64,000 nucleotides of DNA from a plasmid (GCF_054482525.1 NZ_JBTHVG010000003.1), one strand, 5' to 3'. Numbered from the stretch's first letter, positions 15,672 to 44,575 are shown. Notes: a model not told the origin generated them from the letters alone. Program-made: numbers and translations.

Positions 15672-15676
15672 ATGTT

Positions 15677-17017: not shown

Positions 17018-17028
17018 CAACGATAACT

Positions 17029-17809: not shown

Positions 17810-17887
17810 TTGATTGCTAATTGATTTACATATTTTCCCTGATGGCCAACCTGCATCAGGGAGGCCTCAATAACGAATGGAGGCTGT

Positions 17888-18766: not shown

Positions 18767-18784
18767 TTAAATTATACCCATGTG

Positions 18785-18820
18785 GGGATCACACCCCATA
18801 TGGGAGTGATCCCTTTTTTT
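18785..18820 (+). terminator. Terminator hairpin with T7
   Basis: GGGATCAC...GTGATCCC stem (loop ACCCCATATGGGA) followed by TTTTTTT. Confidence 0.6.
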
Positions 18821-18836
18821 ATTGAGAGAGGATCAC

Positions 18837-19772: not shown

Positions 19773-19840
19773 TTAAAATTATTTTCTCCCATAGGGATTT
19801 CTCCCTATGGGAGAAATCCCTCTATTAAGAGGGTATTGAA

Positions 19841-20761: not shown

Positions 20762-20827
20762 TCTAACCCATCCGGGAACCTGCTTCCCGGTGGGAAGCAC
20801 TTCCTTTTTAGTCATGAGGTAGTGTAA

Positions 20828-21766: not shown

Positions 21767-21937
21767 TCCTTTTGCTTCAGTCCAAAAAAGTAACTTTGGT
21801 TGGCTGAAGACACTTGTCTATGACAATGTAAAATCTGTCGCTGGCATCTTCTTTTAGCTTAACCAAATTTTTATCTAACCCAGTGGGGAAGTCGCTTCCC
21901 TTCTGGGGCACTTCCTCTCAAATTCGAGGTAGTGTAT

Positions 21938-22894
21938 ATGACACATTCATCTGATGATAAAAACTATGTCCGAGCAGTTCTGAGTTATCTTGGCATAGAT
22001 TTTGATGAGGCGGATATAGTATTAAGTGTTTGCCATTGTCAAAGTGACGAGCTTTCTTTTACCTGTAATATCAAAGCTATTGAACTCAAGAATGTTGTTG
22101 ATTTATATGTCGATAGTATCTCTGAGAATGAAATAGAAGCTTTAAACAGAGAATCTTTAAAATCGCGACTCTGTTACTTTCTTGAGGTGTTTGACGCAGT
22201 CTCTGGTCAGTACCTTGAAATTTCAGGAAAACACTTTGCAACTAGTCGTTTTGAATATGATGATGTTTGTAGTGAAGTTCTTAGCATGTCTAATGATGTT
22301 TCTCAGTCGAAAGGTTATGACCGGGATGAATATAACAGACTGATGCAGGTTGATGGTCAGGTTATGATTGCCCGTTTTGCTTTGCAACAGTTCTGGGATA
22401 CTCATTTTATTGGACTAATAACATTTGTATCTGAGTCTATAACATCGAGCCTCTATAAAGCTTATGAAACTTTTAGTGATATTAGTTTGGCTTGCTATAA
22501 ACTGAGTGAATATTCTTATTCACGCTCTATCAACAGTGAATTGACCCTTAATATTTCACTTAAAGAAAATGACTTCTGTGAGGACCTATCTGATTGCTAT
22601 ATGGAAGATGAGGCTTTACCTTCTGGTAGGGTAATTTCTCGACGCAACAATGACTCCATAATAAGTATTTATGAGAGCTATGCTGCGGCTTCTTATATTC
22701 CGATGATTGCATCTTTGGAAGTCGTTGATGAATACGGCGAAGTGGTTACTGACCTCTGCCATACCGTTTATGTTTCAGAGTTAACCGGTGGGCGGATTAA
22801 AATCCACGACCGTAATGACTTAGTATCTGAAGTTTTCGATAACCTAAGAAATTTAAATCTTGCAGTTGGAGATTCAGTTTCACAAGCTGCTTGA
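21938..22894 (+). CDS. Hypothetical protein, tandem paralog B
   Basis: Start moved to the ATG at 21938 so that the leader GAGGTAGTGTATATG matches paralog A's GAGGTAGTGTAAATG; about 318 aa. Confidence 0.55.
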   Translation: MTHSSDDKNYVRAVLSYLGIDFDEADIVLSVCHCQSDELSFTCNIKAIELKNVVDLYVDSISENEIEALNRESLKSRLCYFLEVFDAVSGQYLEISGKHFATSRFEYDDVCSEVLSMSNDVSQSKGYDRDEYNRLMQVDGQVMIARFALQQFWDTHFIGLITFVSESITSSLYKAYETFSDISLACYKLSEYSYSRSINSELTLNISLKENDFCEDLSDCYMEDEALPSGRVISRRNNDSIISIYESYAAASYIPMIASLEVVDEYGEVVTDLCHTVYVSELTGGRIKIHDRNDLVSEVFDNLRNLNLAVGDSVSQAA

Positions 22895-22933
22895 TTCTTT
22901 CCCTGATTTTGATTTTTTCTCACATACTCTTAT

Positions 22934-22958
22934 GGCACGGTTTCCGTGCCTTTTTTTT
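22934..22958 (+). terminator. Rho-independent terminator closing the paralog block
   Basis: GGCACGG-TTT-CCGTGCC followed by T8. Confidence 0.7.
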
Positions 22959-23157
22959 GCCTCGCTTACAAGCGTCTACTCCTCTTCTACCTATCCCACC
23001 TTACATCACCACTTAAAATCTATCTTTCTAATTCCATTATCCTTTTCGTAGCCTCTAATGCTCTGGTATGAACATACTCTTTAAACTCAAAAAAGTGCTA
23101 TTAACGAAAAAAAATCCCTAAAGAGATTTGTATACTGTTCTCAACCAAGGAGAGCTC

Positions 23158-23433
23158 ATGAATGAACTAAAATCCAAAAACGAGAACAGTACCAAAAGCA
23201 ACTTTCCCCCGGTTGATAATCAGTTTTGCTTTTACCATGTTGATTTCAGCATAGAACGACTACTTTCTACGGCCGAGGATCTCCAGCTTGAGTACATCTT
23301 CCAGAAACCTGGAAGTGAAGTAAGAAAGGATTTGGTTGAGCGATTCGAACGTGGAGAGCGCTTTGTTACAGCTTCACACTGTGACAATTTCTGTGAAATC
23401 CTTGGTTGTCAAGGCCATCAGGAAAATGCATAA
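23158..23433 (+). CDS. Small hypothetical protein
   Basis: AAGGAG RBS upstream of the ATG at 23158 (the ORF track starts at 23128). Confidence 0.4.
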   Translation: MNELKSKNENSTKSNFPPVDNQFCFYHVDFSIERLLSTAEDLQLEYIFQKPGSEVRKDLVERFERGERFVTASHCDNFCEILGCQGHQENA

Positions 23434-23477
23434 ACCCATAAACCTACATTTCCACTTTTAAGGATGTTCACTAAAGA

Positions 23478-24068
23478 ATGATTGGAGAAAGTATTTTTGA
23501 CTGGGTAATTTACGGAATATCCATTTTGATATTTGCCTCAGCACTAATTGAAGGAAAGACAACTCGCTACCCAGCACTTTTTTTCTATGGGAGTTTAATT
23601 TTAATGTTAATCCTGATAGTTGCTGGAGGCCTTAACTGGTGGTTCTACAGGTCAAAATATGGCGCAGTAATCGTTATCTTCACAGTGGTTTCTTTACTGA
23701 TGACTCGATTCCGCCTGGTCATATATAAATTAAGATTAAGAAAGTTAGTTTCAGAGATCAGATTTCGTATAAAAACGGGTTTTCGTATAATTCTTGTTTT
23801 GTCGGATAATGAGGATGAGCGTAATGTTCTGCTGTCTATGCTTAGCAACGTATTGCCAGAGCAAACGCTTATTCACACGCGTGATGCTCTCGGACCTCAT
23901 TCAGGGCCTATCCTAAAAGCTCTTGAGCTACATCATCAACAGGGAACAGGTTACATACTCGTCTGTGAACAACAAATCTCAGCGCGTACGTGGTTGAGTA
24001 TCGTAGAAAATGGGAAACCTGATACATCTATAGCTGTTAATTTTCATTCGATCCCAGAAATGGAGTGA
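23478..24068 (+). CDS. Membrane protein, unknown function
   Basis: Three predicted TM helices in the N-terminal half followed by a soluble domain. Confidence 0.5.
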   Translation: MIGESIFDWVIYGISILIFASALIEGKTTRYPALFFYGSLILMLILIVAGGLNWWFYRSKYGAVIVIFTVVSLLMTRFRLVIYKLRLRKLVSEIRFRIKTGFRIILVLSDNEDERNVLLSMLSNVLPEQTLIHTRDALGPHSGPILKALELHHQQGTGYILVCEQQISARTWLSIVENGKPDTSIAVNFHSIPEME

Positions 24069-26468: not shown

Positions 26469-27374
26469 ATGCAATGGATTTCCACAGCCAGCCAGAAAAT
26501 CGATGAGCGTCTCTATCGTGTCTGCGTCTGGGTAAAAAAATATCACGCTGATGCGATTAACCGCGTTGTGCTTACCGTTGATCTAAGTAAAGCCCGACAT
26601 GACCCTGACGAGGACCAGGTAAGAGCAGAGCTGCTGTGCGGCCATTATTTTTTGCTTCGTAAGGAAAACGCTTCGAACTCTGCGCCTGACGATCAAAAGT
26701 TTGCTTTCCTGCCTGACGGGCGCAATCTGTGTTGGCAGACCGCAACCCCGGTGCTTCAGCATCTCCTGCTCAATAAAAACGTTCCTGAGTCGCTGAGGTT
26801 GCTTACGGACTACATACATATGCGTCTGGCCAGGCTGACAATGGTACCAATGTCCGGAACCATCATGAACGAGGCTCTGCTGGACAGCATCAGCTGGGTT
26901 AAGGTGGATTTGACCTACTTCTGGCAGTACGAACAGCTCAGCTCTCATCTGGGACCCATCCAGATAACCCACAAGGCACTAGTACGCTTCGGGCATCTGG
27001 CAAAGAATGATGAAAACTCCAGTGCCATAAGAATCCTGCGTCAGCGTCTGTCTTCAGAATTCTTACAAGAATTTCAGATGGCTGAGGATGAGCTAAAGCG
27101 CAAACAGTCGTTGATGGGCACCATGGACGTGAAAATGCTGTTTCATGCTCATTACCCCAGCCAGAAGATGCTGGTGGCTCGATATAAAAATGGTTGGGTA
27201 ATGGTGGATTGTTTTCTGTTTCATCATACCAAACCTAAGAAAAAAGCAAAAAACAAAACTACTGTGGCTAAGCCTCAACTTAAAGAGACTAAAAGAGAAG
27301 GGAGTGAAAATGGAACTGGGCATTATGGTGTGCATCGTGTTGTTACTCTCCGTGGCGGCGGCGTGGATCAGTAA
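26469..27374 (+). CDS. Hypothetical protein
   Basis: 301-aa ORF with a basic, lysine-rich C-terminal tail. Confidence 0.4.
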   Translation: MQWISTASQKIDERLYRVCVWVKKYHADAINRVVLTVDLSKARHDPDEDQVRAELLCGHYFLLRKENASNSAPDDQKFAFLPDGRNLCWQTATPVLQHLLLNKNVPESLRLLTDYIHMRLARLTMVPMSGTIMNEALLDSISWVKVDLTYFWQYEQLSSHLGPIQITHKALVRFGHLAKNDENSSAIRILRQRLSSEFLQEFQMAEDELKRKQSLMGTMDVKMLFHAHYPSQKMLVARYKNGWVMVDCFLFHHTKPKKKAKNKTTVAKPQLKETKREGSENGTGHYGVHRVVTLRGGGVDQ

Positions 27375-30843: not shown

Positions 30844-32343
30844 TTAGTTTTCAACTAACTGAACGACGACCAGCCTGCCGCCTTCCTCCTTTGACAGAAC
30901 AAACTGAGCGTTATTCGTCAGTTCAATTTTTTCCCCAATGGCAATCTGTCGTTTATCCGGTAATGACATAAGCCCATTTATGCCTTCATTTACTAACCAC
31001 CACTGATCGTTATGGAAAACAAAATACCCAACTCGTTTCCTTTGTGCATCGGTTGTGCGCTCATTTGGCGCAATGAGGCGATTCACATGCCACGCATAGA
31101 TTGACTGCCCGCTCCACACCATCAACCGGTGGTCGTCAGGACGATAACTGCCTTCCTTTCGGGATGAATATAAATTTAGAACCGGTAATTTACCCTTGTA
31201 TGGCGTACCGCAGTAGGGACAAACCGGCTTTGTCTTACCTGAGAAAACGTACCATTTCTGTTCACACGCCTTGTTCTGGCAGGGCTGTATCAGATCGACT
31301 GTTTTAACCAGGGCACTTTCCCACTCATCGGCGGTCGGGCGTTTATTGGCATCGTGTAAGCCATCAATAAAGGCGCGTTCAAACAAAGGCGTCAAATAAG
31401 GGCCCATGATGGTGTAAGGAATTTTCTCCGGGTCAGCCCAGGGCAGTGAAAAGGAGGATAGCTGACTGACTTTGACTGCATTGCTTTTGTCTGTCGGATG
31501 TTCAATGAAGAGTGCCTTCTCACCCATAGATAAGGTCTCATCACGTACTTCATCCGACATGTCATGTATTTTTCCGCCACGTAGCGGATGACGGAAGAAC
31601 AGATACATGTAGATAAGCACCGACAGCGCATGACGGTCAGTAGAAATGCTTGGCAATACGCGGTTCGGATCCTCTTTGGAAAGATGGCTGGTTTTCACCA
31701 CTTCCGGAGCGATAAAATCCGGGGTGCCCACGACGTCGGGAGGATACTTTCCAGGGACAACCAGGCCGTCTACGTCAATGATGCAGGCATGTCCCATTTC
31801 TGGATCGATAAGCACGTTTTTATAGCTTAGATCGCTGTGACAGAGACCTGCCGCATGCATCCTTCTGACGGCTCTTGTTAGCAGCAGACAGACCTTGAGA
31901 TAGGTAAGCGTATTGCCTCGTTCACGTAGGTCGAGAAATTTATTCTGGTTGCTGGCGCTGGCAAACCATTTGCCTTCCTTTTCACGGCCTTTTATGCCAA
32001 GAAAATCATCGTTTTTAGAGCCGTATTTAAAGAAAAAGTAGCTTTTGTAGGTTGGAACCACGATGCCGATTTTATCCCCATGCTCAACAACGTGGGTCGG
32101 CCAGCAAAACAGGTCCTTCCAGTATTCACCTCCGGACTGGCCAAAAATGTTTTGCCTGTAGCGTCCGGTGATCATATCAATCCGATCCCGGGCCTGCTCG
32201 TTCTGCGGTTTATGATAAAAAGCGACGACGTATGATTTATCAGGCGAGAAGTAAACATCCTTCATCGAGCCCGAACCAATTACCTCGTCAACATACTGGA
32301 CTGTTTCGCCGTCCTTTGTTTTGCACGTAACAATATTTGCCAT
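30844..32343 (-). CDS. Ser/Thr protein kinase with C-terminal zinc ribbon and FHA-like domain
   Basis: Gly loop GSGSMKDVY, catalytic loop CHSDLSYKNVLI, DVDG, APEVV; Zn ribbon CQNKAC...CPYC; start set at the ATG at 32343 (GGTGA RBS). The ORF-track start at 32397 would overlap the phosphatase gene. Confidence 0.85.
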   Translation of the reverse strand: MANIVTCKTKDGETVQYVDEVIGSGSMKDVYFSPDKSYVVAFYHKPQNEQARDRIDMITGRYRQNIFGQSGGEYWKDLFCWPTHVVEHGDKIGIVVPTYKSYFFFKYGSKNDDFLGIKGREKEGKWFASASNQNKFLDLRERGNTLTYLKVCLLLTRAVRRMHAAGLCHSDLSYKNVLIDPEMGHACIIDVDGLVVPGKYPPDVVGTPDFIAPEVVKTSHLSKEDPNRVLPSISTDRHALSVLIYMYLFFRHPLRGGKIHDMSDEVRDETLSMGEKALFIEHPTDKSNAVKVSQLSSFSLPWADPEKIPYTIMGPYLTPLFERAFIDGLHDANKRPTADEWESALVKTVDLIQPCQNKACEQKWYVFSGKTKPVCPYCGTPYKGKLPVLNLYSSRKEGSYRPDDHRLMVWSGQSIYAWHVNRLIAPNERTTDAQRKRVGYFVFHNDQWWLVNEGINGLMSLPDKRQIAIGEKIELTNNAQFVLSKEEGGRLVVVQLVEN

Positions 32344-32368
32344 ATTGATCACCGAAGAAGCGTATCCC

Positions 32369-34009
32369 TTACCACAACACCGCAATAGTGCGGTCATCGT
32401 GGTTCCCTGTGGAGAAAAAGTTAAGCCAGTCGCCTAACCTCTCAGGCGCAATACTGGCGTCTGTAAGGACAGGGATGAGCTCATCAAGGAGACGGGTCCA
32501 TTTTTCGTCACTGCGAAGCCCGTTATCTGTCTCAAACAGAGGGTCTGATACGCCATCTGTCATGAGGATCAAGTGAGATACATCATTCCATTTACCCACG
32601 CTGATGCGGCCGCTAAACGAGGGGTCTGCGATAATGCTCTGGTCAAGAAAGCGGGTTTGTCCTGCGTATTCTCCGCTATCGGGATTTCCCAGTATCCTGA
32701 CTTTACCGGAAGGGCTGTATGCACCTATCGCACCATCACCAAGCCAGAATGCAGCCGCAAACAGCTCGTTATCAGTTCGTAGCGCTACAGTTGCCAGTAG
32801 GGTTGTTGAATAGGATTTCACAGGTTGTTCTGCACAAATGGCTTCGTTCTGGATACTGTTGACCGCGAGCGTAGCTGCCTGTTTAAAATGATGAAGCATG
32901 GCGTTTATGGTTGCCTGCTGATCGCTCCCTTCCCACGCCGTGATGTGCTGCTTTAGATGGACGCCTTTCAAACCACTGAGCTGATTGAAAAGGTAATCGC
33001 CAGCCGTTTGGACTGCAATCCGGGAGCCTTCCCGGGAATTTACCGCACTACCGGCCCCGTCTGCGACCAGCATGACAGACCATCCTGTTTCCTGGCAGTG
33101 GTTGATATAGAAGTCGTCATCTCTGAAGCTCCCGGCATGCTCATGAGATCGTCCCCGGCGACTGGCGGCAGCAATACGTATGTCACCCCTGACCAGGCCA
33201 GCAGCGTCCAGATGGGACTTAGGGTAGGAAGCGTCTGCTGGTGGCTCTACCACCTTCCACAGGCTTCTCGGATCGGGATTGACTATAAAAAGCTGTTTTG
33301 TTTCGCATTCGTCGTGCGAAGCGCATGACCAGAGTACTGAAAGCTCTATATCGCCGCTTTCGGTGGGTGTACCTGTCAGCAACTTATGCTCTTTGTCAAA
33401 GGTCAGGCCAATGTTCCTGGGAAAGACAACGTCCCTGACAGTAGCCTGCTGGCCCTCATCCAGAACTATAGCAACCGGCGAAGAGAAACGTTCGCCTGCG
33501 CGGGCGTTGGGAATAACTATTTTAGCTCTCGGGGGAACGGCAGGTGGCACAGCTAATCCGGCCCGCTGCTGGCCTGTCGGTATCTGCCCGGGTTTTAATA
33601 CCAGGGAAGACAGGTTTTCGTCTTCCCTCTGTGCTGGTTTATCAAATTCGTAATAAGGCATCAGCTTCCAGAACGGAGGATGAGGTTCATTTTCTGGCAG
33701 GGGTTGCAGTAATGGTGTATCGGTAGCGTCAATGCCCGGGTTATCAGCATCACTTACGACCGTTTGTTGCTGATCGGAAAGGCTGGATGCTGACGAGGGG
33801 GCGATCTCTGCGTCGTTATAACCTTCGCTAACCCGCGCAGATAAACCCTGTGCAAGGCTCTCAATCCGCTCTTTAAGCCGCATAATCTCTTCAGTAAGGG
33901 AAGGGTCGTGCGATAGAAGAAAAAGCCGCTCACCTTCTACAGGGTGGCCCAGCTCAGACAGCACTAAGCGGATAATCTTCTCTTCAAGTAAAACATTTTG
34001 CGACATCAA
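32369..34009 (-). CDS. PP2C-family Ser/Thr phosphatase with long N-terminal extension
   Basis: PP2C motifs VMLVADGAGS and LILMTDGVSDPL; its ATG overlaps the stop of the upstream vWA gene (ATGA). Confidence 0.85.
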   Translation of the reverse strand: MMSQNVLLEEKIIRLVLSELGHPVEGERLFLLSHDPSLTEEIMRLKERIESLAQGLSARVSEGYNDAEIAPSSASSLSDQQQTVVSDADNPGIDATDTPLLQPLPENEPHPPFWKLMPYYEFDKPAQREDENLSSLVLKPGQIPTGQQRAGLAVPPAVPPRAKIVIPNARAGERFSSPVAIVLDEGQQATVRDVVFPRNIGLTFDKEHKLLTGTPTESGDIELSVLWSCASHDECETKQLFIVNPDPRSLWKVVEPPADASYPKSHLDAAGLVRGDIRIAAASRRGRSHEHAGSFRDDDFYINHCQETGWSVMLVADGAGSAVNSREGSRIAVQTAGDYLFNQLSGLKGVHLKQHITAWEGSDQQATINAMLHHFKQAATLAVNSIQNEAICAEQPVKSYSTTLLATVALRTDNELFAAAFWLGDGAIGAYSPSGKVRILGNPDSGEYAGQTRFLDQSIIADPSFSGRISVGKWNDVSHLILMTDGVSDPLFETDNGLRSDEKWTRLLDELIPVLTDASIAPERLGDWLNFFSTGNHDDRTIAVLW

Positions 34010-35046
34010 CCTCTCCCTCTGTTTACGTCGAAGTTAGTGTTTCCGCCATCATTGCTGAATGACAGACCTGTTTCACACCACGGGCAGATCACGTCATCCG
34101 GGCCGTCAATGCACAGCAATTTTCCGCATGAGCACAGGGCAAACGCACTGGCATTACCGCAGTGAGGGCAACCCGGTACGCCATGCAGTTCGCTGGTGTT
34201 TACCTGCAAACCGGTAGCGGTGGCATCTGACCATGCAAAATAGTCTTCATCGATGGGATAGCATCCGGCAATATTAAAGCTGTTCAGGTTCAGGCTGAAA
34301 TCGAGCCCGGAAATCCTTGCTGGTGGCCGTTCATACTTCATCAGATACGGACGACGGGTCTTGCTGCAACGGCCGGTAAGCGTAACGCAGTTTTCGTCGT
34401 ACGCTTTTACTGGCTCGTCCTTGGCCAGCCGGACTATGTATTCAGTCTGGCTGAGCTCAGGTTGTTTGTCGTCTCCGACGCTGCGGCTGTGCGCCGTAAC
34501 CGAGGCTGTGATCCATTTGATGAAGCGGGTAAAGTCCCCTTCCTGAGACTCGGTGAACAGCATGACATTCTCTGTCAGTTGCCGCAGGGTATTCAGGTCC
34601 GCTGACGGCCCCAGGCCAACGGCAATGAGATTCACTTTACTCGCGTAGTGATCCTTCCAGCGCTTCACTTCTGCGGTTGTGTCGTCAGTCGGACGTCCGT
34701 CGGTAAGGAGATACACGACGGGTTTCCAGTCGCCTTTAGCCTCATGAGTGGTTTTTCTGACCTGGGTATCAATTTGTACGGTCAGCTCACGCAATGCGGC
34801 CCCAAGGCTCGTACCGCCGCCAACGGGAAGGCGGGGAGGGTAGAACGAGGCAATTTCGTGAAGAGGTACAATCGTACGGGCTACACCGGCAAATGCGATT
34901 ACCGAAACCCAGGCTGTTTCAAGTGCGTGTGGATCCTTTCTTAAATCTCCGATGATCATTTGCAGACCATCAGTCATTTTTTTCAGGTTTTCACCAATCA
35001 TGGACTCTGAACAGTCCAGGACAAAAAACACGGGAAGGCGTCTCAT
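34006..35046 (-). CDS. TerY-like vWA protein with C-terminal zinc ribbon
   Basis: MRRLPVFFVLDCSESM MIDAS motif; C-terminal CPHC...CSC...CPWC; start moved to the ATG at 35046 with a GAGG RBS. Confidence 0.8.
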   Translation of the reverse strand: MRRLPVFFVLDCSESMIGENLKKMTDGLQMIIGDLRKDPHALETAWVSVIAFAGVARTIVPLHEIASFYPPRLPVGGGTSLGAALRELTVQIDTQVRKTTHEAKGDWKPVVYLLTDGRPTDDTTAEVKRWKDHYASKVNLIAVGLGPSADLNTLRQLTENVMLFTESQEGDFTRFIKWITASVTAHSRSVGDDKQPELSQTEYIVRLAKDEPVKAYDENCVTLTGRCSKTRRPYLMKYERPPARISGLDFSLNLNSFNIAGCYPIDEDYFAWSDATATGLQVNTSELHGVPGCPHCGNASAFALCSCGKLLCIDGPDDVICPWCETGLSFSNDGGNTNFDVNRGRG

Positions 35047-35131
35047 AATTTTCCTCGTACGGCTGGTACGGCCAGCAGAAAACGTTGCTGTACAGAAAGG
35101 TGCTGCCCGGAAAGCAGCACCTTTCTGTCTG

Positions 35132-35770
35132 TCAGAGCACCAGCTGGATTTCTGGTGGAGGAGGGGGAAGGGTATCAGTTCCGTTATTGATCCCCGCGCT
35201 TGTGCTGCCGGAAGACACGCTGGCCGATACCCATTTAAAGAAACCTGCAAACGCGGTTGAATCTAGCGTCTCCAGAGACACAACCTTATCGGTAAGCTGT
35301 TTTAAGTGCTCATGGCCTGCTTTAGGACCAACGGCGCAGGCAATGATGGATCCGAATCCCCGGCCGCGAATCGCTTTTACCGCTTCACCGTACGCCAGGG
35401 CATCAGAAGGGGTTCCATCAGTCATCAGGAATACCAGAGGACGCCAGTCTCCTTTTGTATCACCATCTGAGCGACGTACATCCCGTTCAACACACTGCAT
35501 CAGACATTCAAGGGCAGCACCGGTGAACGTCCCGCCTGCGCTTGGCACAACGATGTCAGAAAACTGGAAGTCTTCCAGCGGCGTGAGAGGAATGAACTCA
35601 CGCGCCTCATTGTCATAGGTGATAATGGAGATATGAACGCTTTCGAGGGCGTAGGGATCCTGGCGAAGAGCGCTAAGCATCGCCTGAATTCCAACGTTAA
35701 CGGAATGGATGGACTCACCGCGCATCGAGCCGGATGTGTCGATAACAAGGTAAACAGGCAGGCGGCGCAT
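35132..35770 (-). CDS. terY: TerY-family vWA protein
   Basis: MRRLPVYLVIDTSGSM MIDAS motif, about 212 aa; its ATG at 35770 overlaps the terX stop (ATGA). Confidence 0.8.
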   Translation of the reverse strand: MRRLPVYLVIDTSGSMRGESIHSVNVGIQAMLSALRQDPYALESVHISIITYDNEAREFIPLTPLEDFQFSDIVVPSAGGTFTGAALECLMQCVERDVRRSDGDTKGDWRPLVFLMTDGTPSDALAYGEAVKAIRGRGFGSIIACAVGPKAGHEHLKQLTDKVVSLETLDSTAFAGFFKWVSASVSSGSTSAGINNGTDTLPPPPPEIQLVL

Positions 35771-36411
35771 CACATGTAATTCCTCAGGTGCGAGACAAAC
35801 GAATCTGATTCTGAAGGCTCACCAATTGCCCTGAGTTTCCAGCCTGTAGCCTCGCGTATCAGCTCGGCAAAAACCATGGAGCGCTGGCTGGCGAAGGCGG
35901 GTCCGCCAGAAAGATCGAATCGTGCCATTTCAATATTACGGGCATCTACTGCCCGGATGAAGGCATTCTGAACTTTACCAAAGTGCTGCTGGAGCTTTTC
36001 ACCATTGTAGATCTGAACGATGAACACAATTTTCTCGTACTGAGCGTCAAGGGAATTCAGGCGCACAATAATTTGCTCATCGTCACCATCACCGGCTCCG
36101 GTTCGGTTATCGCCCGTCAGCCAGATATTTCCTGACTTATGGCGAAGGCTGTTGAAAAAGATGATATCGCCATTCACAAGCGTTGGTTTACCATTTTCCA
36201 CATTGCCGAGATCGGTCACCTTTCCGGCTGAATTACACAGGAAAGCGATCACATCAAGGTCGTATTCTTCTTCTTTTTTACCAAAGATCCCGCCGAGGAA
36301 ACCTTTCTTTTCCTCATTAATATCCCAACCCAGGCCGATAGTAACGGACGAGAGATCGTATTCATTTTTTTTCAGGCTTACGCCCTGGCCTTTGCTCAGA
36401 CTGACAGACAT
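35770..36411 (-). CDS. terX: TerD-family protein TerX
   Basis: TerD-domain hallmarks [13 protein letters not shown] and GDNRTGAGDGDDE; 213 aa; sits between two terY genes. Confidence 0.85.
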   Translation of the reverse strand: MSVSLSKGQGVSLKKNEYDLSSVTIGLGWDINEEKKGFLGGIFGKKEEEYDLDVIAFLCNSAGKVTDLGNVENGKPTLVNGDIIFFNSLRHKSGNIWLTGDNRTGAGDGDDEQIIVRLNSLDAQYEKIVFIVQIYNGEKLQQHFGKVQNAFIRAVDARNIEMARFDLSGGPAFASQRSMVFAELIREATGWKLRAIGEPSESDSFVSHLRNYM

Positions 36412-36433
36412 GACATCCCCTTAATTAATAAAA

Positions 36434-37072
36434 TTATAAGACCACGTTTACTTCTGGCGGCGGCGGTGGCAGGTCTTCAAGACCGATCACTTCTTTTTTG
36501 CTGGACTCCACTTTCTGACTGCCTACCGAAATGCTCGCACTGACCCATTTAAAGAAAGCTTTAATCGTCGAACTGTCAGCTGTATCGAGCTGAACCACGA
36601 TTTCAGTGATTTCTTTGAGGACGCTGGTATCGGCATCATGCCCGGCTGCACATGCCACAACAACGCCGGTTCTGGCCGCTTTAAAGTCATTCAGGCCTTT
36701 ACGCCAGTCATCATTCGGACTTCCATCCGTCATCAGGAATACAAGGGGACGCCAGTCACCTTTAGTGTCAGCCGTCGTTTTCTGTACTTCTTTGGCAATG
36801 GAGCTGGCCGTCAGGGTAAGCGCTTCGCCAAGAGAGGTGGTGCCGCTGGCTGTTAGTGCTGGCATCTGGAAACTCAGGAGGTCTGTCAGGGGGACTGCCT
36901 GTCGGGCTGAAGAATCAAAGGTGATCACTGACACGTAAGCCGTTTCGAGTGCATACGGATCCTGTTTCAGCGTGGTAAGCAGCGTCTGAACGCCATTCTT
37001 AACCGCTTCGATAGGCTCTCCGTGCATAGAGCCGGACGTGTCGAGTAGCAGATATACGGGTAAGCGTCTCAA
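36434..37072 (-). CDS. terY: TerY-family vWA protein
   Basis: (M)RRLPVYLLLDTSGSM; start moved to the TTG at 37072 with an AAGGAA RBS 7 nt upstream. The ORF-track start at 37153 adds an unsupported N-terminal extension. Confidence 0.75.
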   Translation of the reverse strand: MRRLPVYLLLDTSGSMHGEPIEAVKNGVQTLLTTLKQDPYALETAYVSVITFDSSARQAVPLTDLLSFQMPALTASGTTSLGEALTLTASSIAKEVQKTTADTKGDWRPLVFLMTDGSPNDDWRKGLNDFKAARTGVVVACAAGHDADTSVLKEITEIVVQLDTADSSTIKAFFKWVSASISVGSQKVESSKKEVIGLEDLPPPPPEVNVVL

Positions 37073-37496
37073 ATGTAATTCCTTCTTAAGAGATCGGAAG
37101 AGGAGAGTAGTTTCAGGAAGAGGCCAGAGTTTGTAGATTTGATAAAACGGCACGACATCTGTCGGGTGGAGATTAAATACTCAGAAGCGGCATTAAAGAA
37201 ATAAGTTAACCACCATTGAATTACCGACATGTGAATGGCCTCTTATCAGAGAAAAAAATTCAGACCGTACTGGAATATAAATTTCTGAAAAAAACTCCGG
37301 CAAAAATAAACTTTCTTATGTATGAAAATCATCATACATCACAGATCTGCATGAATGGAGTGTAAATCGCCCAAAGATTGATGTGTAGCACAAGAGGATG
37401 TCAAGACACCAGGTTTTGTAGGCAGAAAGGCGCTGCTGACATTGCGGGAGGAGAATAGATCAAAACTCCGTCACGCAGATACAGAGGTGAAATATG

Positions 37497-37520
37497 ACAA
37501 AACCGGGGTTTTCACCCCGG
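37497..37520 (-). terminator. Rho-independent terminator after terW
   Basis: CCGGGG-TTTTCA-CCCCGG (plus-strand reading) with a T-run on the minus strand just downstream of the terW stop. Confidence 0.6.
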
Positions 37521-37534
37521 TCTGAGATTTAGCG

Positions 37535-38002
37535 TCAGGACTTTTTAGCGCTGTATTCTTTTATCAGTTCATCAACGGAGTGCAGAGCCAGCTTCTCTAC
37601 CGCTTCACTTCGGGTCGAGCCACTCAGCGCAGCCAGACGGTCAATTTTTCTTAAAATCCGCATGCGTAGCGATAATGACACGGCTGTTTTTTTATCCTTA
37701 TCGAGTACGACCTTCCCTGTGGACTCACCGGTTTTCAGTTCAGCATTCTGTGCGAGCGCTTCATTCATCCGGCGAAGGGTCTTTTTATCCAGCTGGCCCG
37801 GATTAACGAGATGGTAGGAATGACCTGCCTTGCTGTATTTGATCTCCGCAGAATATGACTCGCGTAGCTCTTTGAGTGCCCGGGTTAATGTCGGCTCTGA
37901 GCATTCCAGACTGGTTATAATGTCGGCAGCGGAAACGGGCTTGCCGGTGCCCAGTAAGTTGGCAAGCTTAAAAATCCGGGCCTGTCTGGTATTTAATTGC
38001 AT
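37535..38002 (-). CDS. terW: TerW, DNA-binding protein of the ter locus
   Basis: 155 aa, HTH-like segment SAADIITSLECSEPTLTRALKELRES; size and position match terW of plasmid and island ter loci. Confidence 0.75.
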   Translation of the reverse strand: MQLNTRQARIFKLANLLGTGKPVSAADIITSLECSEPTLTRALKELRESYSAEIKYSKAGHSYHLVNPGQLDKKTLRRMNEALAQNAELKTGESTGKVVLDKDKKTAVSLSLRMRILRKIDRLAALSGSTRSEAVEKLALHSVDELIKEYSAKKS

Positions 38003-38019
38003 CGTAAGATTTAGCCTGC

Positions 38020-39228
38020 TTAAAGGGTTAGTGGTTCAATAGGCTGAAAAATGAAGGTACTGCTCATCTTTCGAATAACCGGGTGATCGCCTAACGCTTC
38101 AACCGGATCAATGTGTTCTAAGCCTGCAAAATTTACTGACGACATCTGGCTGCGACTGCATTTGCAGGACAGGATATACTCATCCTCCAGATAGCCGGTC
38201 CGCTTACTGACCCGTTGCGTAAAGCCTGACACAATCACGTTGTCGAACGGTAGCGTATGTAAAACGATACCGACCAGGCGGAACAAGCAGCCATGGACGT
38301 GGCGGGCATAGTTTTCGCGTACGGCTTTTTGCGTCATGGCTTTTTCCGTCAGCTCCGTGCCCCGGGCATTAACGCCGTAAATCTTATCAGGGAAATCTTC
38401 AATCTCAGCTAAATCAACATCCAGCAGGACTGCTGATAGCTCCGGCTTTACTTCAAATGCAACAAGCGTTTCACGCGGCCATTCAGTTTCTGCCAGCACA
38501 CCCGCCAGGTATGATTCGAAAAACGCGGCGTCTGTCCGGAACTGCTGCCGGGCATCTGCCTGAGCCGTGGCGAGCCGTTTTTCATGTTCTTCAGCCTCAA
38601 ACTTCCAGTTTGCATACTGTTCGGCCCAGGCCGTCCGTTGTTGCTGGTACCGGTGCTGTCGAAGGGTATTCTCACGCTCCACATCAATCAGCTCCTGCTG
38701 CCACCGGCGAAGATTTTCGGCGTGGCGCTCAGCTTTAGCTGATTCCGATTCAAACCATTTACCCAGAAAACTAATGCCTTCGCTCTCGGCAGGCTTTTCC
38801 GGCAATGCAAGATAGTCTGGCTTTTCTGGACGCACCGGTGCCGGAACCTGAAAAGGCGACGTTCTGTTATGCAGGTATACTGCTTCCAGCTCTGCCCAGC
38901 TGATGCCTGTTTTAGGATCCGGCGTCAGCTCGTGAATATTACGGATTGCGGTCACCGCTGACATGAGATCAGCGGCTTCCTCCTCAAGCGCCTGTCTGAG
39001 CCCCGGGTCGGTAGCCGTCCGGTTCCCACCTCCGGAACGCGCGGCCCGATCAAGCCGGGTACGGTAACTCAGCCCGGTACCGGGCAAGCCCAGATTGGCA
39101 TAGGTCCCCCGGCTTCCAAAAGAAACGGAAGCACCTCTCGGCCCGACACTCAGGCTCGGTGCACCGTTACTCAGGTTGAGGCGAACACCAGGAATAATGT
39201 TGATCGACTTTCTGAATCTGAACCCCAT
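38020..39228 (-). CDS. ter-associated protein of unknown function
   Basis: Starts MGFRFRKSINIIPGVRLNLS (DUF4236-like as I recall it); AAGGA RBS; last gene of the biosynthetic operon. Confidence 0.5.
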   Translation of the reverse strand: MGFRFRKSINIIPGVRLNLSNGAPSLSVGPRGASVSFGSRGTYANLGLPGTGLSYRTRLDRAARSGGGNRTATDPGLRQALEEEAADLMSAVTAIRNIHELTPDPKTGISWAELEAVYLHNRTSPFQVPAPVRPEKPDYLALPEKPAESEGISFLGKWFESESAKAERHAENLRRWQQELIDVERENTLRQHRYQQQRTAWAEQYANWKFEAEEHEKRLATAQADARQQFRTDAAFFESYLAGVLAETEWPRETLVAFEVKPELSAVLLDVDLAEIEDFPDKIYGVNARGTELTEKAMTQKAVRENYARHVHGCLFRLVGIVLHTLPFDNVIVSGFTQRVSKRTGYLEDEYILSCKCSRSQMSSVNFAGLEHIDPVEALGDHPVIRKMSSTFIFQPIEPLTL

Positions 39229-39238
39229 TATGATTTCC

Positions 39239-40195
39239 TTAATGATGCTGGGTCACGGTAAGTAATCTGATTCCATCAGCGCTTTGCTCGTTCTGTAACC
39301 CATAAAAACGAGCTCTGTCCAGAATGCCAGCCGCCCAGCGGCGATGTGTGGCGGGTTCACACATTGCTCCCTGCGACTTAAACACGGCCTGGGTAGAGTT
39401 CAGGATCCGCAGAGCGTCAGAATGCTCACCCTGAGTGACCATCAGCGCGTTTTGAATGACCTCTATCTGACCCGGGTGAATGGCCGTTTTCCCAACAAGC
39501 CCATGTGCCATATCAAGAGCCAGCTCTCTGGCCATTACGGCATGATCGTCAATATGCTCACATACGGGCGCGGTCAGGGCAAAATCACGCGGGCCGAAGA
39601 CCGAAACGAGCATTTTGATGACGTAGCCCATCGGGCTGTCATACAGCGTCAGGTCCCGGGGACGGCGAAGCGACACAACGTTCATAAGATCGTTGCCGCC
39701 GATTCGAAGCGCAATAATGCGGTCGTGGCAGGGATGTTCCACCAGACGGGTGGCCAGCTCCCGCATCTGAACCACGTCAAAGACGTCTTCTGTTTCCAGC
39801 GTTGGCATCATGCACAGGTGAGTCCCGCCCATGATATCCCACCATTCAGCTAACGAACTGAGGGTAAATTTCGGCAACACAAACCCGTCGACAGCGGAAA
39901 GATCATAATGCGCTTTTAACCATCTGCCCATTTCGGCATGCCGGGGGCGAATGAACACCAGAGGCCAGTCATTTTTACCCAGGCTATGCATGCTGTTACT
40001 GAGCTCGTGCAGCAGGTGCTCCAGATTTTTGAGGGCGACGGGGATGTCTGCTTCACTGACAGCATCCTCCAGGCAAATCACCAGAGAGCGCAAACCCGGG
40101 ATTTTCCCGTGCAGGACGGCATCAGCAATATCTTCCCGTGTTGCAGGCATGTATAGCGTGGCTCCCAGATTCCAGGGAGAAAGACGATTTTTCAT
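39239..40195 (-). CDS. HpcH/HpaI aldolase / citrate lyase beta-like TIM-barrel enzyme
   Basis: Citrate-lyase-beta-like sequence (…LVICLEDAV…) ; its ATG at 40195 overlaps the stop of the upstream PRTase-like gene (ATGA). Confidence 0.65.
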   Translation of the reverse strand: MKNRLSPWNLGATLYMPATREDIADAVLHGKIPGLRSLVICLEDAVSEADIPVALKNLEHLLHELSNSMHSLGKNDWPLVFIRPRHAEMGRWLKAHYDLSAVDGFVLPKFTLSSLAEWWDIMGGTHLCMMPTLETEDVFDVVQMRELATRLVEHPCHDRIIALRIGGNDLMNVVSLRRPRDLTLYDSPMGYVIKMLVSVFGPRDFALTAPVCEHIDDHAVMARELALDMAHGLVGKTAIHPGQIEVIQNALMVTQGEHSDALRILNSTQAVFKSQGAMCEPATHRRWAAGILDRARFYGLQNEQSADGIRLLTVTQHH

Positions 40196-41274
40196 CAAAG
40201 TACCTTCTTGATAATGGTTACAGCCCGATACTGGCCGAGGGTTCCCCCCATTTCTGTAACAACTATTCCCTTTTCACGAGCAAGCCCTACAAGCAAGGCA
40301 ACGTCCGAGTCGTCAATAGAACGCACAAATACATGGTCCGGTACCCGACGTAATACAGCCCGGGTTGCTTCAGCAATACCGGGTTTTATACGATTGACGC
40401 TGTCCACTTTAAATTCATCGGCCAGGAACGCGATAACGTCGCGACTTGTCTGCCATAAGACCCGGGCTGACTCCGTATTCCAGCTCAGGGGAGCGAGGGA
40501 TGACGGGGTTAACTTCTTACGGAAATGAGCGACGGTATCGACAAGCATCCGGCTGCATTCGAATTCACTGAGATGCTCGCAAACCATGCACCCGTGTAAT
40601 CCTTCAGAGGACCACACTGACCGGGAGATCAGGCCTGACACCGGCGCACCCATGATGCCAAAAGGAATGAGCCAGTCATCATCACTGGCTGCAAGCCAGG
40701 AGCAGCCACAGGGATCGGCCAGGACAACCAGTCGCGGCTGCTCAGGATAGCCCGGGCGATCTTTCAGTGCGCGTACAAGCTCTCCGGTAATTGCGCCTTT
40801 ACCTGTCCATCCGTCAACAAAGACAATACCGCTGGTACCATGCCGCTCTTCAATGACGTCGAGGGCTGCACCGTCAATTCCACGATCCCGGATAATGCTG
40901 ATACCGTAATGCCATGAGGTTTTCCCCATGTCACGCAGGGCCTGGTGCAGCATAACGCCGAGCGGCACGCCAGCCCTGACAAGACTGGCCAGTACAATGG
41001 GCTCATCACCAAAGCGTTTGGCCAGAGCAATAGCGAGCTGTGTGACTTCTTTTGCAAGTCTCTCTGCGCCCCGATCCAGCGCCCGGTGAAACAAATCAAG
41101 ATGCCATTGTGTTGGCGCTGGCTCCTGACTGAGCATGTCCGAATAATGTTTCTTCCCTGACTGAATCAGCTCTTCTTTTTGCTCAACCGGCGTCATCTCA
41201 ATGACAACCGGCTTTAGCAGAAATTCCACGTCACCGGGCTGGTATGAGCCGGTAAATGTGTCATGTGGCTGCAT
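40195..41274 (-). CDS. Phosphoribosyltransferase-like protein (ter-associated)
   Basis: PRPP-binding-like segment GIVFVDGWTGKGAITGEL; ATG at 41274 lies 1 nt after the HAD stop. Confidence 0.55.
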   Translation of the reverse strand: MQPHDTFTGSYQPGDVEFLLKPVVIEMTPVEQKEELIQSGKKHYSDMLSQEPAPTQWHLDLFHRALDRGAERLAKEVTQLAIALAKRFGDEPIVLASLVRAGVPLGVMLHQALRDMGKTSWHYGISIIRDRGIDGAALDVIEERHGTSGIVFVDGWTGKGAITGELVRALKDRPGYPEQPRLVVLADPCGCSWLAASDDDWLIPFGIMGAPVSGLISRSVWSSEGLHGCMVCEHLSEFECSRMLVDTVAHFRKKLTPSSLAPLSWNTESARVLWQTSRDVIAFLADEFKVDSVNRIKPGIAEATRAVLRRVPDHVFVRSIDDSDVALLVGLAREKGIVVTEMGGTLGQYRAVTIIKKVL

Positions 41275-41275
41275 T

Positions 41276-42049
41276 TTAATTTTCTCCAAAAATTCGCTGT
41301 GAAATGGCATCTGCAAACTGACTCTGACGCGGGATGCCAAACCAGCTGCACAGTTTCATAAAACGATGATCGCTCAGGCTGTCGCCCAGGCCAATTACGG
41401 GGAAGACTCCGCGTTCAGCCCGAAGTTTTTCAAGCAGCCATCTGACTGCCAGCCCTTTCTCAACCGGGGTGGGAAGCCAGGCCACGTTATTACTGTTGCG
41501 GTGGATGTAGAAGCCCTCGGTCGGAAACACCGTTTCTATCTCATCTGCAATGGCATTAAGCTCGTCAAGGCGGGTGCTGTCGCGGTGCTTCATCACCATA
41601 TAAACCGCCGTTTCACCGTATTCGAAGTTCAGCCTTGCCCAGGCATTGATCCCTTTTGCGTCCATCATTTCAGTGATCAGACGCTGCATCGATGTCAGCT
41701 TTTCCTGGTAGGGAGCCAGCTGGCCAAGCATATGGGCCTTCCACTCCTCGTCGGGTTTGCCTTCAGGCGTGAGAATGACGGCCCCGTGCGTGGTGATTGC
41801 CCAGGAGTGGAAAGGGATCCGGACGCGGCTGATTTCTTCAGTTCCCCGGGCGGTAACAGGTATGAGTTCAGCCTGCTCCAGGAGCCAGTCCACCAACATG
41901 GACTGTTCTTCCGTCATAAAGCTTCGTGGATTCAGGGTGCGATCAACGGCACCGGTACGGAATGGCTCCAGGGCCAGCTCGTCCACCATTTTACGACGGG
42001 TCTGAAAGAGCGTGTCGTCAAGGTCGCTCAGAACAACGGGTTTATTCAT
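41276..42049 (-). CDS. HAD-superfamily hydrolase
   Basis: Motif I VVLSDLDDTLF; start moved to the ATG at 42049 (MNKPVV...), which overlaps the 3' end of the upstream PRTase gene. Confidence 0.8.
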   Translation of the reverse strand: MNKPVVLSDLDDTLFQTRRKMVDELALEPFRTGAVDRTLNPRSFMTEEQSMLVDWLLEQAELIPVTARGTEEISRVRIPFHSWAITTHGAVILTPEGKPDEEWKAHMLGQLAPYQEKLTSMQRLITEMMDAKGINAWARLNFEYGETAVYMVMKHRDSTRLDELNAIADEIETVFPTEGFYIHRNSNNVAWLPTPVEKGLAVRWLLEKLRAERGVFPVIGLGDSLSDHRFMKLCSWFGIPRQSQFADAISQRIFGEN

Positions 42050-43184
42050 AGGTAACAATCTCCACGACGGGCGCAACCTCAGCCAGGGCTTTAAGAAGCT
42101 GCGTGTCAATACTTTCTGCGGGTGTCTCAGTACACACAAGAATACGGTCAAACTGCTGGTGGGCGACGTTATAGACAAAATTGGGGATGCCCAGCCCGTA
42201 GTTATCCGTAAAGGAAATGGCGGACTCAATGGCATAACCAACGGCGATAGGGGAGCGGGTGGTCGAACCATAAAGTGCCTGTGCTCCGGCAGCTTCGAGC
42301 CGTTCAGCAAGCAGGAACGGCTCCCAGACGAATTCCCCGGTCCCGAGAACCAGAATACGTTCCCCCTTGCGGACGGAGACCTCATGGCCGAGATCGGCCG
42401 CAGGTGCGAGCATCCCCAGTCGACCCCAGGACTGTTTTCCCAGGATGTCCCATTCTCCGCGTGAAGTTACGTTGACTTTCGGCATGTCCGGGACAGGTGC
42501 ATCAGGTAATGGGGTCCATCCCCACTGACCGCTTACAAGCGAAACCGAAGTGACGGGCAAGGATGTGCGCTCCGACAGGGCGTTGCTACTCCAGTCGGTA
42601 AGCGTAACGGCGATAACCTGTTCAATATGTTGAAGCTTGCCGGTATTACGCAGGGCAGAAAGCAGGTTAATAAAGGTATTACCGGTGGTTGCCTCGTCAT
42701 CAATCAAAACCAGCGTTCGTGCGTTGGTAACACGACGTCTTTTCTCTTCATCATCTGGCAGATAGATCAGATGATCGGTGGCGTGGCTGTGTTCTTCCTT
42801 GAACTCGCAAAGTAACGTGCCATCAACCGGGTGACGGGTAGAGGTCAGATAGACAGATTCACGATGCTGGTGGCGCACTTCATCAAACACACCGGCCCCT
42901 AGCCCAACGGCGGTTTCAGCCATACCGATAAAAAGTACGGGCCCTGTCAGCGTTGCGGGGAACTGGCTGGCAAGCTGTCTGTAGGCCTGCCGCATGACTG
43001 AGGGTGGCACGGGAATGTGCCTGCCGAGTACTTTGCTGACAAACAGAAAGGCGCGTTTCGGGTTACGTCTTTCAGCGATATCAAACAGGTCATCGAGCGA
43101 AACATCACCCTGGTCGCGGGTTACCTGTATCGTACCGCATGAGAGGGTACGGCGATAAATCATATCTTCGAGGGTATCAGACAT
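42042..43184 (-). CDS. Phosphoribosyltransferase (PRTase)
   Basis: Canonical PRPP-binding motif TLVLIDDEATTGNT; ATG at 43184 lies 9 nt after the ATP-grasp stop. Confidence 0.8.
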   Translation of the reverse strand: MSDTLEDMIYRRTLSCGTIQVTRDQGDVSLDDLFDIAERRNPKRAFLFVSKVLGRHIPVPPSVMRQAYRQLASQFPATLTGPVLFIGMAETAVGLGAGVFDEVRHQHRESVYLTSTRHPVDGTLLCEFKEEHSHATDHLIYLPDDEEKRRRVTNARTLVLIDDEATTGNTFINLLSALRNTGKLQHIEQVIAVTLTDWSSNALSERTSLPVTSVSLVSGQWGWTPLPDAPVPDMPKVNVTSRGEWDILGKQSWGRLGMLAPAADLGHEVSVRKGERILVLGTGEFVWEPFLLAERLEAAGAQALYGSTTRSPIAVGYAIESAISFTDNYGLGIPNFVYNVAHQQFDRILVCTETPAESIDTQLLKALAEVAPVVEIVTYE

Positions 43185-43193
43185 AAACACGCC

Positions 43194-44252
43194 TTAATTC
43201 AGATGGTTAGAGAGTGATTCCGGGTAAACGATGACATCTGTGATGGATCTCACTGCAACCGGAGAAAAGGTATTTCTGGCGCTCTGGATCACCGCATCTT
43301 CAGACATCAGACCGAGCTTAAAGGCAGCAAACAACCCGGGAAGGTTCACCCCGCTGTGAAGGGTATAACCCACCCCGCCTGACGGACGCATGTTGGTTTC
43401 AAGCAGCACCGGGTTGCCATTCACATCGTTTCGCGTCTGAACATTCACCAGCCCGTCGGCCTTCATAACCCGGGCGCAGTCACAAGCCAGTTCCCAGGCG
43501 CTTCCTTCGTTTACCAGATACTGGATAGCCCCTTCCTTACGGCGTCCCACGGCTGCGAGTATTTCGCCCTTATCCGCGAGGATATCGACGGAAAATTCCG
43601 GGCCTGGCAGGTACGGCATCAAAACAAGGGGTTTAAACGACTCAGAAGCCGATGCTGCTGCAATATACTGTTGCGGACTGACCAGACGATGTTCGGGATG
43701 ATTAAAGACGGCCATGGGCGAAGCACTGTCATCAAAGCGCCAGAATCCCATGCCATAGATACCCGTCACCGGCTTCACGCATACCGGGCTGTCCGAGAAC
43801 GGCGGGGCCGCGAGGTGCGTCTTTAATTCTGCCAGCGTATTCACCCGCCAGGACGGTACGACCGGGAGCCCGTTTTGCTCCATAAACTGAGCAAAAGTAA
43901 CTTTTTCGTCAGCCAGAGTTAACCAGTCGACGCCTGTTGCACCGGTAGTAAGGGTGGCTCCGGTCGATTCAATGGCTGAACGGTGTTCTTCAAACCACTG
44001 GCTGTTACGGCCAGTATGAATATGGTGGATGCCGTAGGTCTGAATGGTTTCCTGAATAAACTGAAGACGTTTTTGAGGATCTTCAGGTTCAGTCAAAGAA
44101 TAATCGGCAACGGAAAGAATTTCATGTCTTTCGTTACGGTGGGAGGCAAATACGGTAATAGCAAAATTATTTTTTTGTGCAAATGATTTTACCCCCTGAA
44201 TAATATCTCGCTGGGAGGACAAACCTTCCATAAACCAAATTTTCTTGTTCAT
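43194..44252 (-). CDS. ATP-grasp enzyme
   Basis: ATP-grasp-like core with Gly-rich and acidic segments (…VLLETNMRPSGG…); first gene of the operon, divergent from terZ. Confidence 0.7.
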   Translation of the reverse strand: MNKKIWFMEGLSSQRDIIQGVKSFAQKNNFAITVFASHRNERHEILSVADYSLTEPEDPQKRLQFIQETIQTYGIHHIHTGRNSQWFEEHRSAIESTGATLTTGATGVDWLTLADEKVTFAQFMEQNGLPVVPSWRVNTLAELKTHLAAPPFSDSPVCVKPVTGIYGMGFWRFDDSASPMAVFNHPEHRLVSPQQYIAAASASESFKPLVLMPYLPGPEFSVDILADKGEILAAVGRRKEGAIQYLVNEGSAWELACDCARVMKADGLVNVQTRNDVNGNPVLLETNMRPSGGVGYTLHSGVNLPGLFAAFKLGLMSEDAVIQSARNTFSPVAVRSITDVIVYPESLSNHLN

Positions 44253-44575
44253 TTTTTTTAATTATCCGGAACGCCATGCAAATTTATGATTGAGAAGTGA
44301 GTCTATGAGTGTCTACGCTACATGTCAATCATAATATGATTAATAACTTCAGTGGTTATGGAGTGCGTCAGTGTTTTTTTTAGTGCCTTATAACGTATTG
44401 ATATTTAAATTAAAAATAGAAAAATGAACACCATGAAAAGGATTTATTTTTGTGTTTTTGAAGAAAACTACCAAAATTTCCCTTGTCAGAGAACTTCATC
44501 ATGATATGATTTTCTTCGTCAGTTACTAAATATACCTTTGATTGTCTCGGTCATTACCATTTTAAGGAATAAAAC

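Follow-up and report, generated by a model that had tools for sequence, protein, structure and literature searches.

Which compound is made by the genes that diverge from terZ in ter loci, and how might it act with the Ter proteins? The question is raised by a 64,000-nucleotide stretch of a plasmid (GCF_054482525.1 NZ_JBTHVG010000003.1), hereafter the window, in which the open reading frame listing and the sequence revealed a minus-strand block of six tightly packed genes at 38020–44252, divergent from terZ. The outer boundaries of the six coding sequences were those in the RefSeq annotation of a 100%-identical IncHI2-type plasmid, in agreement with the first-pass annotation, which had placed a six-gene operon here. 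The block is, with near certainty, the canonical five-enzyme Ter-linked biosynthetic module, carried by an IncHI2-type plasmid. Judging from the encoded enzymes, its product is on balance probably a decorated nucleoside-like molecule derived from phosphoribosyl pyrophosphate (PRPP), which would serve as a ligand or signal for the Ter complex. ter loci occur in ~19% of complete Escherichia coli genomes and on ~2,500 sequenced plasmids, and have been reported in Shiga-toxin-producing E. coli including O157:H7, in Klebsiella pneumoniae including hypervirulent strains, and in Yersinia pestis, while their physiological function is still called unclear in the literature. Within these loci the biosynthetic module has received the least study, to the point that wet-lab papers on ter constructs do not name its genes, and knowing what it makes would probably show what the TerB/TerD/TerC complex senses or does.

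The operon contains the following genes, listed in the order of transcription.

43194–44252, minus strand: ATP-grasp amidoligase (Pfam ATPgrasp_Ter, PF15632), the first gene of the operon
42042–43184, minus strand: type I phosphoribosyltransferase (PRTase; Pfam PRTase_2) with a C-terminal TRSP domain, assigned from Pfam, the PRPP loop, and the fold
41276–42049, minus strand: HAD-superfamily (IIB-like) sugar-phosphate phosphatase, "hypothetical" in RefSeq, assigned from weak family matches and a PDB match
40195–41274, minus strand: second PRTase-fold protein (Pfam StiP) with a C-terminal PELOTA/L7Ae-like domain, "cysteine protease StiP" in RefSeq
39239–40195, minus strand: TIM-barrel C-C bond lyase, HpcH/HpaI/citrate-lyase family in RefSeq, distant kin of CitE/HpcH/RipC
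38020–39228, minus strand: DUF4236 protein (Pfam N-terminal domain), a lineage-specific accessory gene

A PRPP-derived nucleoside-like metabolite acting with Ter proteins is an already known hypothesis, which the predicted enzymes of the window support. The five-enzyme gene set, its linkage to ter, and a nucleoside-like product belong to the in silico model of Anantharaman, Iyer and Aravind (2012, Mol Biosyst), as summarised in later papers; one of these proposes that TerB and TerD sense a signal synthesised by the PRTases and the HAD protein (Iyer 2021). The operon in the window, which is divergent from terZABCDEF, resembles the published five-gene module (PF15632, PF15609/PF12500, PF11202/PF15608, and PF15617) in having all five families in the conserved order and in adjoining TerZ/A/B/C/D/E, and the same nucleoside-like product is predicted. 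It differs, going by secondary descriptions of the model, in the DUF4236 gene between the lyase gene and terW and in the close packing of terW. The window thus rediscovers a published prediction on a very common plasmid backbone, which does not by itself advance the question. What is added here is small, namely the kinship of the HAD protein with a Pseudomonas aeruginosa "trehalose-6-phosphate phosphatase" (TPP), the PRPP-dependent ribofuranosyltransferase that is the best structural neighbor of StiP, and the status of the DUF4236 gene as a lineage-specific add-on.

Sequence inspection of the junctions showed a 9-nt gap between the ATP-grasp and PRTase genes, an 8-nt overlap (ATGAATAA) between the PRTase and HAD genes, a 1-nt gap between the HAD and StiP genes, a 1-nt overlap (TGATG) between the StiP and lyase genes, which becomes a 4-nt TTGA overlap if an upstream TTG is the start, and a 10-nt gap between the lyase and DUF4236 genes. 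The spacings of 9, 1, and 10 nt given by the first-pass annotation were therefore correct, whereas its overlap of -3 is the 8-nt overlap and its ATGA junction is TGATG. Tight gene spacing by itself is commonplace in bacterial operons. The gene overlaps were seen again in the P. aeruginosa annotation, and conservation of the arrangement beyond chance is argued by the order PRTase-HAD-StiP-lyase, which was colinear in 71 of 80 loci of different species.

These 80 loci were obtained from the lyase, whose family comprised 857 clusters at 50% identity in a representative-level search. One genome per species was then scanned with a 16-sequence lyase alignment as the seed. At least 507 loci were confirmed, and for the 80 that were retained the neighborhoods were annotated by phmmer with the window proteins as queries. 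A TerD-family gene lay within 10 kb of the lyase gene in 79 of the 80 loci, and the complete, colinear PRTase_2-HAD-StiP-lyase set was that of the 71 loci mentioned above. ATP-grasp was present in 55 loci, TerW in 31, and DUF4236 in 8. The TerW-positive loci were nearly all from Enterobacterales, with one from Shewanella (L024). Xenorhabdus and a relative (L023, L025–L027, L030–L033, and L038) had a PRTase-(HAD)-StiP-lyase core in which phmmer did not detect ATP-grasp, terE, or terF, nor HAD in L030 and L032, which suggests that the ATP-grasp step is dispensable in some lineages. Most Pseudomonas-type loci (L039–L082) carried an extra gene between the ATP-grasp and PRTase genes that matched TerD-family queries. 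In the P. aeruginosa megaplasmid pBT2101 (L084), the gene in this position, at 4820–5959, is annotated as "trypsin-like peptidase domain", and a second HAD hydrolase gene lies 3' of the lyase gene at 9939–10667.

The association with ter was also seen within E. coli and among plasmids. By megablast, the 6.2-kb block was found in 970 records representing 956 of 5426 complete E. coli genomes, with 698 chromosomal and 287 plasmid placements, and many IncHI2-type plasmids were 100% identical to the operon block. Genes for terC-terD were found in 1012 E. coli genomes, so that the 956 with the module correspond to ~94% of the ter-positive genomes. In PLSDB, the lyase and TerB were each found in 2532 plasmids, with near-identical genus breakdowns. 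Absence of the operon from most ter loci, which the first-pass annotation had named as telling against its proposal, was thus not seen for proteobacterial ter operons. Some Bacillus ter clusters have been described without the biosynthetic module.

Orthologous operons divergent from terZ include the "putative biosynthetic cluster" of K. pneumoniae pK2044, OA04_37930-37890 of Pectobacterium versatile, and those in the chromosomal ter islands of E. coli O157:H7. E. coli chromosomal copies showed ~95–99% DNA identity to the window operon, and the lyase of the Klebsiella plasmid showed 73% protein identity to that of the window. The P. versatile operon forms a single transcription unit whose regulation goes along with that of terZABCDE (PMC7843439); it differs from the window operon in that no DUF4236 gene lies between the lyase gene and terW (L029).

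What chemistry, then, do the proteins suggest? Family searches, folds, and motifs bore out all six domain calls of the first-pass annotation (ATP-grasp, PRTase, HAD phosphatase, second PRTase-like protein, CitE/HpcH-like TIM barrel, and a protein of unknown type). As judged from alignments of orthologues from 80 species, the five enzyme-like proteins keep the catalytic residues that would be expected of active enzymes. The ATP-grasp protein matched PF15632 at 2.7e-37, a family described as "ATP-grasp in the biosynthetic pathway with Ter operon", and its predicted ATP/Mg residues K117, K160, and E285-x-N287 were invariant (n = 55 orthologues). The first PRTase matched PF15609 at 1.5e-63 and TRSP (PF12500) at 5e-23. 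Its PRPP loop, D162 D163 E164..T167 G168 x T170 (DDE..TG.T), was invariant, as were the GMAETA and E-x-HSHA motifs and R310-S311-P312, the eponymous residues of TRSP. The AlphaFold2 model of PRTase_2 (predicted local distance difference test [pLDDT], 91.4) had APRT and XPRT as its top Foldseek matches, indicating an APRT-like fold, in full-length searches that were dominated by the PRTase domain.

The lyase matched Pfam C-C_Bond_Lyase (PF15617) at 9.3e-114, and fifty residues were invariant among 81 sequences, including E43, D44, R83, E134, R164, and D169. Against curated models, it scored below cut-off for both RipC (34 bits; cut-off 375) and CitE (20 bits; cut-off 443), and it matched CitE-like chains in the PDB at E-values of 0.004–0.2 over residues 207–295 only. 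By these family scores, the lyase is assigned to a distinct family, PF15617, that is tied to CitE/HpcH-HpaI at the superfamily level only. Some members of the family were far longer, namely P0171 (683 aa), P0229 (874 aa), P0208 (543 aa), and P0200 (461 aa), which suggests domain fusions that might point to functional partners.

The fourth protein matters most for the number of PRTase steps. It matched StiP (PF11202) at 4.9e-89 and PELOTA_1 (PF15608) at 1.4e-24, and an AlphaFold2 model was built from a 30-sequence alignment (pLDDT, 91.8). Foldseek comparison of this model with the PDB returned type I phosphoribosyltransferases only, the top 50 all being HGPRT-like, and the C-terminal domain had an L7Ae-like fold. 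No protease fold was among the Foldseek matches listed. The best structural neighbor was a PRPP-dependent ribofuranosyltransferase, so that the acceptor need not be a nucleobase. The predicted fold argues that the first-pass call of a second PRTase-like protein was right and that the database name "cysteine protease" is questionable.

That name nevertheless has a history. StiP could be a cysteine protease, in which case the operon would link proteolysis to stress resistance and would not comprise two PRTase steps. The Pfam StiP match and the NCBI name "cysteine protease StiP" are in line with this reading, as is the near-invariant Cys229 (28 of 30 sequences, with Ser in the remaining two) close to the invariant His227, a pattern compatible with a nucleophile. 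According to a later citation of Reichert et al. (2013), Acinetobacter baylyi StiP was reported as a protease and the A. baylyi stiP mutant as tellurite-sensitive. The A. baylyi locus is in our set (L079), where the StiP orthologue is the fourth gene in the order ATP-grasp-PRTase-HAD-StiP-lyase and the genes adjoin ter genes, yet the predicted fold here is that of a PRTase with a PELOTA domain. At least one paper holds StiP to be unrelated to the biosynthetic chemistry of the module. Set against the modeled fold, a protease seems distinctly improbable to us.

Comparison with known PRTases placed both proteins apart from the salvage enzymes. APRT, XPRT, HGPRT, and UPRT have the type I PRTase fold in common with them, and PRTase_2 has the classical acidic-TTG-T PRPP loop; however, identity was only 13–19%, and the Ter enzymes add the TRSP and PELOTA domains, the unique, invariant E-x-HSHA and VDGWTGKG motifs, and linkage to ter.

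The HAD protein had weak HAD-IIB matches only in Pfam and NCBIfam, and a full-length match at an E-value of 3e-43 to PDB 6d3v/6cj0, "trehalose phosphatase". Its motifs I–IV (D9-x-D11, D12, T66, K198, G222-D223, and D227) were invariant among 73 orthologues. In pBT2101, a ter-module gene named "Trehalose-6-phosphatase" (7147–7905) sits between the PRTase and StiP genes and encodes a protein 93% identical to PDB 6D3V. This identity and the flanking genes indicate that the crystallised P. aeruginosa "TPPs" (PDB 6D3V, 6D3W, and 6CJ0) are the HAD enzyme of the ter module and belong to the same HAD family as the third gene in the window, the difference being that they were named and assayed for trehalose-6-phosphate.

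Does the module then make or recycle trehalose or another compatible solute, its HAD protein being a TPP? The closest solved structures were deposited as "trehalose phosphatase", and the P. aeruginosa enzyme (Cross et al. 2018) served as TPP in inhibitor assays. Against this stands the position of the HAD gene, which is always between two PRTase genes. The match to Pfam Trehalose_PPase was marginal (E-value, 0.0088), NCBIfam OtsB was not among the matches listed, and every NCBIfam match that was listed fell far below its cut-off. Moreover, no trehalose-6-phosphate synthase was annotated at the annotated loci (the 100%-identical plasmid and pBT2101), the homologue screen of the 80 loci having been run without an OtsA query. 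Given the ter context, in which no OtsA partner was annotated, and the marginal Trehalose_PPase similarity, trehalose-6-phosphate is probably a surrogate substrate of the P. aeruginosa enzyme and the trehalose assignment non-physiological. A trehalose pathway appears very unlikely.

The families suggest the following route to the favored nucleoside-like product. One or both PRTases would transfer ribose-5-phosphate from PRPP to a nucleobase-like heterocycle or another nucleophile, and a riboside would result once the HAD phosphatase had taken off the 5'-phosphate. The C-C lyase may make or cleave a side chain derived from a keto acid or acyl group, and the ATP-grasp enzyme may join a carboxylate to an amine. 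The product would be able to diffuse and would act as ligand or signal for the membrane complex of TerB, TerD, and TerC, whose genes lie in the divergent operon.

Several observations weigh against this route. The PRPP loop of StiP is atypical (VDGWTGKG, with a single acidic residue), and the A. baylyi orthologue carries the protease report discussed above. The literature found reports no product of the Ter biosynthetic module, and no metabolite has been detected. terZ-F alone gives tellurite resistance in E. coli K-12, which indicates that the module is unneeded for that phenotype and that its role lies elsewhere or is conditional. Finally, the predicted PELOTA domain of StiP hints at an RNA partner over a free small molecule. 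The last point suits a reading in which the enzymes modify a macromolecule, with PRPP-dependent ribosylation of RNA (through the PELOTA/L7Ae-like domain), protein, or glycan followed by dephosphorylation; we regard this as rather unlikely.

A related precedent is provided by CriT/CrpP (Haemophilus influenzae Bcs3, PDB 8A0C), in which a PRTase-fold enzyme and a HAD phosphatase use PRPP. By analogy, the StiP-type PRTase and the HAD protein might transfer ribofuranose-5-phosphate from PRPP to an acceptor other than a nucleobase and then dephosphorylate it. The Ter ligand would in that case be a new ribofuranoside or an RNA modification, not a nucleoside, and the P. aeruginosa TPP would belong to this pathway and owe its present name to a misassignment. 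The acceptor might be a hydroxy- or keto-acid amide from the lyase and ATP-grasp enzymes, or an RNA held by PELOTA. CriT/CrpP and the T. composti enzymes (PDB 7SHG) differ from the window proteins in being capsule/O-antigen polymerase domains that act on glycans, with identity of only 10–11%, and no polysaccharide machinery is found at the window operon. We consider this analogy a tentative minority possibility, behind the nucleoside-like ligand.

The ter cluster also has phage phenotypes, and the product could accordingly be an antiviral or toxic effector (for example, a nucleoside analogue) or the enzymes a drain on PRPP or nucleotides, in place of a Ter-sensed signal; the operon would then be the business end of phage inhibition by IncHI2 ter. 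Both inhibition of phages and resistance to colicins have been reported for the cluster, which was originally described from the IncHI2 plasmid R478; deletion of terC lowers the phage resistance of K. pneumoniae, and a Ter system that includes a PRTase and a HAD protein is present in a jumbo phage. Yet the phage phenotype was mapped to insertions in terZ, terC, and terD, not in the module operon, and PADLOC returned no defense-system match for the six operon proteins except one marginal PRTase match. An effector of this kind is, in our judgment, unlikely, and slightly more so than a modified macromolecule. The nucleoside-like ligand remains the reading that we prefer.

If the product acts with the Ter proteins, are the two operons controlled together? 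The elements that bear on this question are as follows.

37535–38002, minus strand: terW, encoding a DNA-binding regulator, 17 nt past the end of the DUF4236 gene
37500–37523, minus strand: intrinsic-terminator-like hairpin with a 10-bp stem, 6 G-C pairs, and a T-rich tail
44253–44575, no strand assigned: 323-bp divergent control region common to the operon and terZ, with the two best promoter-like sites and two palindromes

The best promoter-like sites lay on the minus strand at 44328->44300 and on the plus strand at 44483–44510; the promoter and terminator scans were overall not enriched over shuffles, so that the best sites are informative by their position only. The palindrome ATCAT-N3-ATGAT occurred twice, at 44328–44340 and 44498–44510, beside these sites. 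It was present in 33 of 36 divergent terZ/module intergenic regions, including those of every TerW-positive locus, and was missing from three of the four loci without detected TerW. Within 1.53 Mb of loci, 72 of its 107 matches fell in ~14.5 kb of intergenic DNA. This palindrome was described earlier as the probable TerW site (PMC7843439), and TerW has been reported as a regulator of the ter operon; TerW operators in the 323-bp region may thus control both divergent operons. Upstream of the terY1-like gene in the window, no third TerW-type palindrome was found with two mismatches allowed, unlike in Pectobacterium (PMC7843439). RNA sequencing in Pectobacterium showed that the orthologous five-gene operon is co-repressed with terZABCDE by PhoP (PMC7843439). 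No riboswitch or other known RNA was found by Rfam within 30–52 kb of the window.

The hairpin 3' of terW, a gene that the first-pass annotation had not mentioned, was the best and longest-stemmed terminator-like hairpin and the sole intergenic one on the minus strand in the region. Its position suggests that the transcription unit may comprise seven genes, and terW probably belongs to the transcription unit of the operon. A point against this is that in Pectobacterium terW is regulated opposite to the five-gene operon (PMC7843439), which makes its co-transcription uncertain.

The sixth protein had a conserved N-terminal DUF4236 domain, its sole Pfam domain, a variable middle, and a conserved C-terminal domain, and family searches found no enzyme signature in it. 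Its gene lay between those for the lyase and TerW only in L005, L008, and L024, plus a fragment in L010, and downstream of terE in four loci of Pseudomonas type, one of them in an unclassified proteobacterial metagenome-assembled genome and the other three in Pseudomonas. The Pseudomonas proteins had both the N- and the C-terminal domain in common with the window protein. Its occurrence in 8 of 80 loci and at two positions indicates a recurrent but sporadic association with ter. Within E. coli the gene is fixed, its 956 genomes equaling the module count. From this distribution of homologues, the DUF4236 gene is classed as a lineage-specific add-on. Among the six operon proteins, only the DUF4236 N-terminal domain matched PHROGs, in nine phage families (best, phrog_38135 at 2.6e-38), which indicates that phages have members of this accessory family too.

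Beyond the operon, downstream of terW on the minus strand, 30844–37153 encodes a vWA protein, a TerD-family protein (terX), a second vWA protein, a vWA protein with a TerY-C metal-binding domain, a PP2C phosphatase, and a kinase-like protein, which RefSeq names "helix-hairpin-helix domain". In PADLOC, the TerY-C and PP2C proteins had no match and the kinase-like protein had weak ones only. This six-gene set recurred in 6 of the 80 loci, and in A. baylyi only the first vWA gene of the set was missing. The plasmid has another cluster with a vWA gene, located by colinearity with plasmid pMCR_W5-6 at ~10735–15379 on the plus strand; its genes encode, in a row, an ATP-binding protein, a small hypothetical protein, a DUF3150 protein, and a 670-aa vWA-domain protein.

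The backbone of the window as a whole is of IncHI2 type. Relative to the 100%-matching pMCR_W5-6, the window is without a segment of ~4.7 kb, ISApl1-mcr-1-pap2-ISApl1 (window 27276–27287), and it diverges from that plasmid past 56139, just ahead of the IS26 gene of pMCR_W5-6. The G+C content was ~54% in the module (38001–44000) and 35–45% for much of the backbone (8001–24000), a contrast that would fit a ter region acquired from elsewhere.

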